Shown one piece after another: positions 4,663-5,658 of a DNA stretch of 64,000 nt. How positions within the stretch are numbered: the first letter of the stretch is position 1; every line of letters begins with the position of its first letter. This DNA is from Escherichia coli (GTDB taxonomy: Bacteria > Pseudomonadota > Gammaproteobacteria > Enterobacterales > Enterobacteriaceae), in NCBI RefSeq assembly GCF_001677475.2, contig NZ_CP015229.1; one strand, 5' to 3'. Below the pieces are notes generated by a model that did no database searches, was not told the origin of the DNA, and worked only from the letters and a program-made list of their open reading frames with translations. A program made the translations under genes and the position numbers.

Positions 4663-5658
4663 ATGATACAACCTATTTCCGGCCCTCCTCCTGGGCAACC
4701 ACCAGGTCAGGGAGATAACCTGCCGTCTGGCGCGGGCAATCAGCCTTTATCCAGTCAGCAACGTACTTCGCTGGAAAGCTTAATGACGAAAGTGACCTCA
4801 CTGACGCAACAGCAAAGAGCAGAACTGTGGGCGGGTATCAGGCACGATATTGGTCTGTCGGGAGATTCACCGCTGCTTTCGCGTCACTTCCCTGCCGCTG
4901 AGCACAATCTGGCGCAACGTCTGATGGCCGCGCAAAAAAGCCATTCTGCCCGCCAGCTTTTAGCGCAATTAGGGGAGTATCTACGTCTGGGGAATAATCG
5001 TCAGGCGGTCACGGACTATATCCGTCATAACTTTGGTCAGACGCCGCTGAATCAGCTCTCACCGGAGCAATTAAAAACTATTCTCACCCTGTTGCAGGAA
5101 GGGAAGATGGTTATTCCTCAACCGCAGCAGCGCGAGGCTACAGATCGTCCTTTATTACCGGCGGAGCACAATGCGCTCAAACAGCTGGTGACCAAACTTG
5201 CGGCGGCAACGGGGGAACCCAGCAAACAGATCTGGCAATCGATGCTGGAACTGTCCGGGGTGAAAGATGGCGAGTTAATTCCAGCGAAACTGTTTAACCA
5301 TCTGGTGACCTGGCTACAGGCGCGTCAGACGCTAAGCCAGCAAAATACGCCGACACTGGAATCACTACAGATGGCGCTAAAACAACCTTTAGATGCCAGT
5401 GAACTGGCGGCGTTATCGGCATATATCCAGCAAAAATATGGCCTTTCTGCGCAATCATCGCTTTCTTCTGCCCAGGCCGAGGATATTCTTAATCAGCTTT
5501 ATCAACGGCGAGTTAAAGGGATTGATCCGCGTGATATGCAACCGCTGCTTAATCCTTTTCCACCGATGATGGACACGTTGCAAAATATGGCAACGCGTCC
5601 CGCTCTGTGGATACTGTTAGTCGCGATTATCCTGATGCTGGTCTGGCTGGTTCGTTAG
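4663..5658 (+). CDS. flk: flagellar regulator Flk, C-terminally membrane-anchored
   Basis: 331-aa [22 protein letters not shown]... with C-terminal hydrophobic anchor [18 protein letters not shown]. Confidence 0.9.

Follow-up and report, generated by a model that had tools for sequence, protein, structure and literature searches.

Where do the transcripts of two convergent genes end when the genes share the base pairs of their stop codons, and what keeps such an arrangement in place? The flk and yfcJ genes raise this question in the 64,000-nucleotide stretch of Escherichia coli DNA (contig NZ_CP015229.1) considered here, which as a whole we call the window. The original prediction was that flk on the plus strand and yfcJ on the minus strand share their last 4 bp, and the open reading frames, their translations and the RefSeq annotation all confirm this, placing the shared tetramer, TTAG, at 5655-5658:

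4663 to 5658, plus strand: flk coding sequence, 331 aa, ending in LVWLVR, with the stop codon TAG at 5656-5658 (open reading frame and translation, RefSeq).
5655 to 6833, minus strand: yfcJ coding sequence, 392 aa, ending in ILSFRRG, with the stop codon TAA as the reverse complement of 5655-5657 (open reading frame, Pfam, RefSeq).
5655 to 5658, no strand assigned: tetramer TTAG common to both stops (sequence and translations).

Read directly, positions 5643-5670 are CTGGCTGGTTCG-TTAG-CCCCGACG. The central TA (5656-5657) consists of the bases common to the two stop codons, while position 1 of the tetramer is the wobble base of the last sense codon of flk, and position 4 pairs with the wobble base of the last sense codon of yfcJ. 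RefSeq annotates the identical 4-bp overlap in three E. coli genomes, K-12 MG1655 among them (flk 2437950..2438945, yfcJ 2438942..2440120), and the locus is present in 5,423 of the 5,426 complete E. coli genomes. The K-12 tetramer is TTAA as opposed to the TTAG of the window, so that both forms exist within E. coli. The overlap is a known arrangement, annotated and catalogued, and not a new feature.

Such an overlap could in principle be an annotation artefact, with the end of one gene mis-called. The stop codons are unambiguous, however, and both proteins align with their homologues up to the last residue. The plus-strand product shares 99% identity with the E. coli Flk cluster and by homology and annotation is the flagella biosynthesis regulator Flk, a tail-anchored membrane protein (a local Pfam search gave sub-threshold matches only; the precomputed domain in the database is PF27202). 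It reaches the last alignment column with 11 diverse homologues; its C-terminal hydrophobic stretch of about 20 residues is conserved in position, and in all homologues aligned the transmembrane domain ends at the last residue. Experiments have established Flk as a true tail-anchored protein, its C-terminal transmembrane domain being necessary and sufficient for targeting (PMC6794478). YfcJ is an MFS transporter (Pfam MFS_1, E = 6.6e-36), which in about 55 species aligns as far as residue 391-392 of its 392. Considering these translations and alignments, together with the independent annotation of the overlap in several RefSeq genomes, we reject a mis-called end as hardly conceivable.

The arrangement belongs to a class described before. 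Four tetramers are able to hold two opposed stop codons, CTAA, TTAA, CTAG and TTAG, and the lengths of convergent overlaps show a jump at 4 nt (Lillo & Krakauer 2007, PMC2174442). In E. coli, 58 convergent overlaps were counted, with about 20% of the genes involved having a predicted rho-independent terminator, and the -4 register is a recognised class that is enriched genome-wide (PMC2174442). The flk and yfcJ genes lie tail to tail, with both stops in one tetramer and with frames that are real up to these stops, as in the YTAR class; geometry and phase are the same, and any terminator is necessarily inside coding sequence. We see no difference from this class and consider the pair a plain member of the ~58 E. 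coli convergent overlaps (PMC2174442). Our preferred reading, which we regard as very probably correct, is that flk/yfcJ is an ordinary YTAR overlap that persists by mutational robustness and whose transcripts end within the partner gene, mostly via Rho.

Tight convergence recurs within the window. Eleven convergent junctions were taken from the annotated gene order, and at three of these 11 the genes are no more than 7 bp apart:

5655-5658: flk/yfcJ, convergent, -4, no room for a terminator.
37850-37862: cscA/cscR, convergent, stops 7 bp apart (+7), no room for a terminator.
62117-62124: ypdC/fryA-like ptsP, convergent, +2, GGCTAA CA TTAGAAG, no room for a terminator.

The lack of room for a terminator between flk and yfcJ had been part of the original prediction, and the terminator scan agrees with it, predicting no intrinsic or bidirectional terminator near 5655. 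Terminator-like sites are missing from about 380 nt on the yfcJ side and about 1.2 kb on the flk side, as judged by a consensus scan that omitted the canonical fabB terminator although that site appears to fit its rules; the nearest ones returned are at 6036-6065 on the minus strand, upstream in yfcJ, and at 6902 on the plus strand. The fabB intrinsic terminator itself lies at 6996-7018 on the minus strand (GGGAACC-CGAT-GGTTCCC and then TTTTT), with a REP-like element ahead of it at about 7050-7100. Rfam returned no family at E <= 1 for 5000-6400, and over the whole window its matches, one tRNA and two naRNA4/REP elements, are all elsewhere than at the junction.

With neither a spacer nor an intrinsic terminator near the junction, each transcript must therefore end inside the partner gene, and because a full-length mRNA crosses the stop codon of the partner, the flk and yfcJ transcripts overlap and their 3' ends are complementary. 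The mutual read-through that had been predicted thus stands as an unavoidable consequence of the coding sequence overlap, and in MG1655 RNA-seq the pair is a convergent excludon (PMC12288877). Defined 3' ends upstream of the overlap had been put forward as the observation that would speak against read-through. As a refutation this is ill-posed, because such transcripts have no stop codons: they would be non-stop mRNAs and not normal transcripts.

As to how the transcripts end, we propose the following scenario. Past its stop codon, each transcript would become untranslated RNA antisense to the partner gene, a classic Rho substrate, and would be ended mostly by Rho, with collisions between RNA polymerases possibly helping. 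The outcome would be complementary 3' ends in the geometry of an 'excludon.' The two sides of the junction differ in base composition. Over 600 nt, the flk read-through RNA has C/G ratios of 0.93-2.0 per 80-nt interval, mostly above 1.2, and no such C-richness is seen in the read-through RNA of yfcJ, which runs antisense to flk and whose C/G ratio is about 0.65-1.2 in its first 300 nt. The former constitutes a candidate for Rho loading:

5659 to 6258, plus strand: untranslated flk read-through RNA, antisense to yfcJ, a putative Rho-loading region, C-rich and G-poor.

Published 3'-end data touch the pair at one place. Among the Term-seq 3' ends obtained under three growth conditions (Adams et al., PMC7815308 supplements), none is assigned to flk or yfcJ, and the Rho-region tables in the same supplements hold no flk entry and none antisense to either gene; the SMRT-Cappable-seq supplements likewise have no flk/yfcJ entry. 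The sole Rho-termination region for the pair is at MG1655 2440043 on the minus strand, with a Rho score of 5.8 and sensitivity to bicyclomycin (PMC7815308 supplementary file 2). This coordinate maps 77 nt inside yfcJ, to the last bases of the T tract at 6780-6754 of the window, where our scan had a hit of its own:

6754 to 6780, minus strand: weak hairpin and T tract, CCGCA-7 nt-TGCGG TTTTTCT, at yfcJ codons 18-27 (scan; coincides with the PMC7815308 coordinate).

The coincidence points to premature termination, or to attenuation, near the start of yfcJ. In LB, most minus-strand transcription appears to be stopped well before the junction, with little reaching it from the yfcJ side, which speaks against strong mutual interference during such growth. 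Because the published tables hold only this 5'-proximal yfcJ region, it is by inference that we assign termination downstream of the flk/yfcJ junction to Rho.

Why, then, does the exact register persist? For a comparison across species, 80 species-level loci were fetched using an alignment of diverse Flk proteins. In 30 of the 80, flk and yfcJ converge at exactly -4; these comprise all Escherichia, nearly all Citrobacter, Salmonella enterica subsp. arizonae and diarizonae, Yokenella, Intestinirhabdus and a few further Enterobacteriaceae. Over these 30 species and the window, the tetramer is TTAA in 15, TTAG in seven, CTAA in seven and CTAG in two, the central TA being invariant and the outer bases only Y and R, respectively, as expected if only synonymous changes are free. 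One of the fetched loci, CACSKA010000009.1 (L059), is titled Chryseobacterium sp. 18061 and holds an enterobacterial flk/yfcJ locus nearly identical to that of Citrobacter sp. 18056 (L062); mislabelling or contamination of the assembly is the probable cause.

Other genera are arranged differently. In Enterobacter, Lelliottia, Leclercia and Huaxiibacter, flk and yfcJ are separated by a spacer of mostly 40-93 bp, and this spacer is an inverted REP-like pair folding at -40 to -57 kcal/mol:

Loci L033, L035, L039, L040, L060, L061, L071 and L075, just 3' of the flk stop: REP-pair spacers, at about 3505-3600 of the locus (L035, 3211-3299; L075, 1836-1925).

In Enterobacter, Lelliottia and Leclercia this inverted REP pair (BIME-like) makes up almost the whole spacer, and both C-terminal ends are as in the -4 taxa. 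The spacers of Cedecea, Buttiauxella and Pseudocitrobacter are of another kind and bear hairpins; in Kosakonia and Phytobacter, other genes occupy 1.6-1.7 kb between flk and yfcJ; and Silvania and some others have lost yfcJ, with fabB next after flk. In Trabulsiella (L030 and L034, about 3500-3560) yfcJ is also gone, with fabB at +123 after flk in L030, and about 13 codons that resemble the YfcJ C-terminus, ending in VITPACFRKG and a stop, remain across the flk stop in the -4 register. Both the -4 taxa and the spacer taxa have Flk ending at the same column and YfcJ aligned to residue 391-392; what distinguishes the two states is therefore purely whether spacer DNA was gained or lost. Which of them is ancestral is not settled by the neighbour-joining tree of Flk, which was midpoint-rooted and in which the -4 taxa are scattered. 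The YTAR tetramer resembles the target of some IS5-type elements, so that an insertion could split the overlap and leave both reading frames unharmed. This origin of the spacer was dropped from consideration, the spacers of the relatives being REP pairs without flanking YTAR duplications.

From this distribution, we consider that the overlap probably stays through mutational robustness rather than through a special function. The central TA is required by both stops, and each outer base is only a wobble position in the last codon of the other gene. Both C-termini are fixed by protein function, since the Flk tail anchor ends at the last residue. The overlap could then be lost in two ways only, by an insertion of DNA that recreates both stops or by loss of a gene, and both routes are seen in the relatives. 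With the ends fixed, the central TA doubly constrained and changes of the outer bases synonymous, the register can be conserved without a selected function, and we infer that the flk/yfcJ arrangement is neutral.

Two further accounts of the junction, one of transcript ends and one of function, need to be weighed against this reading. The first would have RNA polymerases collide at a bidirectional terminator embedded in coding sequence, with a hairpin pausing those arriving from both sides, as in the ynaJ-uspE type. The element that might serve is the following:

5571 to 5600, no strand assigned: 11-bp inverted repeat GGACACGTTGC/GCAACGCGTCC, inside the 3' end of flk.

This palindrome folds on both strands, and in the minus-strand RNA it gives a hairpin of -19.8 kcal/mol, 55 nt past the yfcJ stop and without a U tract, which is in the top ~5.5% of 150-nt segments of the minus strand of the window; collision-driven, Rho-independent bidirectional termination that needs a stem-loop has indeed been described for convergent E. 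coli genes (bioRxiv 10.1101/2022.10.23.513370). The position of the hairpin is awkward for such a role, however, since it lies upstream of the flk stop and flk polymerases must traverse it to make a complete mRNA. The repeat is also specific to E. coli: four E. coli sequences have it unchanged, Escherichia sp. MOD1 has a weaker version, and in E. albertii and the cryptic Escherichia clades it is broken up although the overlap is retained there. About one in 20 random segments folds as well, and the collision model applies best to highly expressed pairs (bioRxiv 10.1101/2022.10.23.513370), while flk/yfcJ has no Term-seq 3' ends, consistent with low expression. Bidirectional terminators as presented by Ju et al. 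(2019; via bioRxiv 10.1101/2022.10.23.513370) likewise serve convergent pairs, terminating in two directions within a very short space, and include intrinsic hairpins flanked by A/U tracts as well as the collision type; compared with that account of them, flk/yfcJ is without an intergenic hairpin. Its only local hairpin, that at 5571-5600, is inside flk and not conserved, and it is the spacers of the relatives that carry REP pairs or hairpins. We therefore judge the collision terminator very unlikely. As a conserved terminator in its own right, 5571-5600 was rejected, being E. coli-specific and matched in folding by ~5% of random 150-nt segments; speculatively, it is a candidate for a pause, or for a hairpin protecting or defining the 3' ends of yfcJ transcripts. 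A useful contrast is the evgS/yfdE convergent spacer at 48101-48155, which holds a near-perfect palindrome, AAATAGCGGCTCCCACA...TGTGGGAGCTATTTA, and looks like a textbook bidirectional terminator.

The account of function takes the overlap for a selected regulatory device, a functional excludon in which transcriptional interference and RNase III cleavage of the duplex would make flk and yfcJ expression mutually exclusive. In its favour, ExcludonFinder lists flk-yfcJ, a pair with a very short, here negative, intergenic distance and overlapping transcripts, as one of 165 convergent excludons that recur in at least 50% of 58 MG1655 RNA-seq data sets (PMC12288877), and 30 species from several genera share the exact -4 register. 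An excludon is called there on coverage only, however, a criterion that any pair with overlapping coding sequences must satisfy, and retention of the register is explained by the wobble-only freedom of the outer bases. Mutually exclusive expression has been demonstrated for classic excludons (the Listeria examples), whereas flk-yfcJ is known from coverage overlap alone. To our knowledge there is no functional link between Flk and YfcJ, which also argues against such a device, as do the related genera without the overlap, be it through a REP-pair spacer (Enterobacter, Lelliottia, Leclercia), intervening genes (Kosakonia, Phytobacter) or loss of yfcJ (Silvania and others), and the apparent stopping by Rho of most yfcJ-side transcription near the 5' end of the gene in LB. 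Functional interference, which the original prediction had raised from the arrangement of the genes, is a possibility; that the overlap is a selected excludon we consider very unlikely. If it were one, it would link flagellar-assembly control to a sugar-efflux transporter. Selection for the overlap, instead of mutational robustness, might likewise underlie the exact register seen in Escherichia, Salmonella and Citrobacter. It is highly improbable, in our estimate, that selection in these genera has kept the register so that the forced antisense overlap would toggle expression between Flk, a flagellar-assembly checkpoint protein, and YfcJ, a sugar-efflux transporter; if it has, the lineages that gained the REP-pair spacer would have lost the flk-yfcJ coupling. 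We note that smrB-yfcO is likewise on the published list of E. coli excludons (PMC12288877); its 217-bp convergent spacer contains two Rfam naRNA4 (REP325-type) matches, at 15909-15979 and 16021-16091 on the minus strand.

Co-directional neighbours in the window overlap as well, and seven pairs do so by 1 or 4 nt. For four of them, truA/usg, yfcA/mepA, fadI/fadJ and emrK/emrY, sharing of start and stop nucleotides had been predicted, and each proves to be a 1-nt TAATG overlap on which RefSeq agrees. A fifth TAATG, from yfcA to epmC, and two ATGA/GTGA overlaps in the yfc fimbrial operon had been omitted:

2347 to 2351, minus strand: usg stop/truA start, TAATG, 1-nt overlap (sequence and RefSeq).
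11472 to 11476, minus strand: yfcA stop/epmC start, TAATG, 1-nt overlap (sequence and RefSeq).
12281 to 12285, minus strand: mepA stop/yfcA start, TAATG, 1-nt overlap (sequence and RefSeq).
26067 to 26071, minus strand: fadI stop/fadJ start, TAATG, 1-nt overlap, GGAGG 7 nt upstream (sequence and RefSeq).
42307 to 42311, minus strand: emrK stop/emrY start, TAATG, 1-nt overlap (sequence and RefSeq).
17502-17505 and 17987-17990: two 4-nt ATGA/GTGA overlaps, yfc fimbrial operon.

Distances of -4 and -1 are the two commonest between co-directional genes in E. coli (707 of 2,987 pairs within -8 to +6, PMC10666635), and the TAATG arrangement, as the second commonest in the genome, is for that reason not a finding. 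The TAATG junctions may be viewed as the standard -1 operon overlap, compatible with coupling by termination-reinitiation, which has been shown at -1/-4 overlaps in three native E. coli pairs (Huber et al. 2023, PMC10666635). The five TAATG and two ATGA/GTGA junctions have the same geometry as those coupled pairs, and fadI/fadJ and emrK/emrY encode subunits of one complex, the category enriched there (PMC10666635). The analogy makes coupling at the TAATG pairs, as originally suggested, plausible. The strong GGAGG 7 nt upstream means that independent initiation may also be possible at fadI to fadJ, and the only weak SD-like sequences at mepA to yfcA and emrK to emrY would imply a greater reliance on coupling there. 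For usg/truA and mepA/yfcA/epmC we know of no complexes.

A few observations concern the window at large. At 33454-39053, the sucrose-utilisation genes cscB, cscK, cscA and cscR adjoin a tRNA-Arg gene (33454-33525); this island is absent from K-12, and in relatives a truncated dsdX remnant is annotated downstream. Compared with the 5,426 complete E. coli genomes, the window reaches a best identity of only 98.1-98.7% at 1-7 kb and 39-64 kb and of about 93% at 14-39 kb, the part containing the yfc fimbrial operon and the csc region. These low best identities point either to a lineage that is sparse among complete genomes or to divergent alleles of the fimbrial region.

Irrespective of the details of termination, flk/yfcJ is a clean textbook case of stop-codon sharing and of why such overlaps are hard to lose once only wobble positions may vary, and its importance is small. 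Its only practical use could lie in testing 3'-end mapping on convergent overlapping genes of low expression, and in the contrast with relatives that have a REP-pair spacer at the same junction. For E. coli, the locus is one of many sites where transcription must end within a neighbouring gene.
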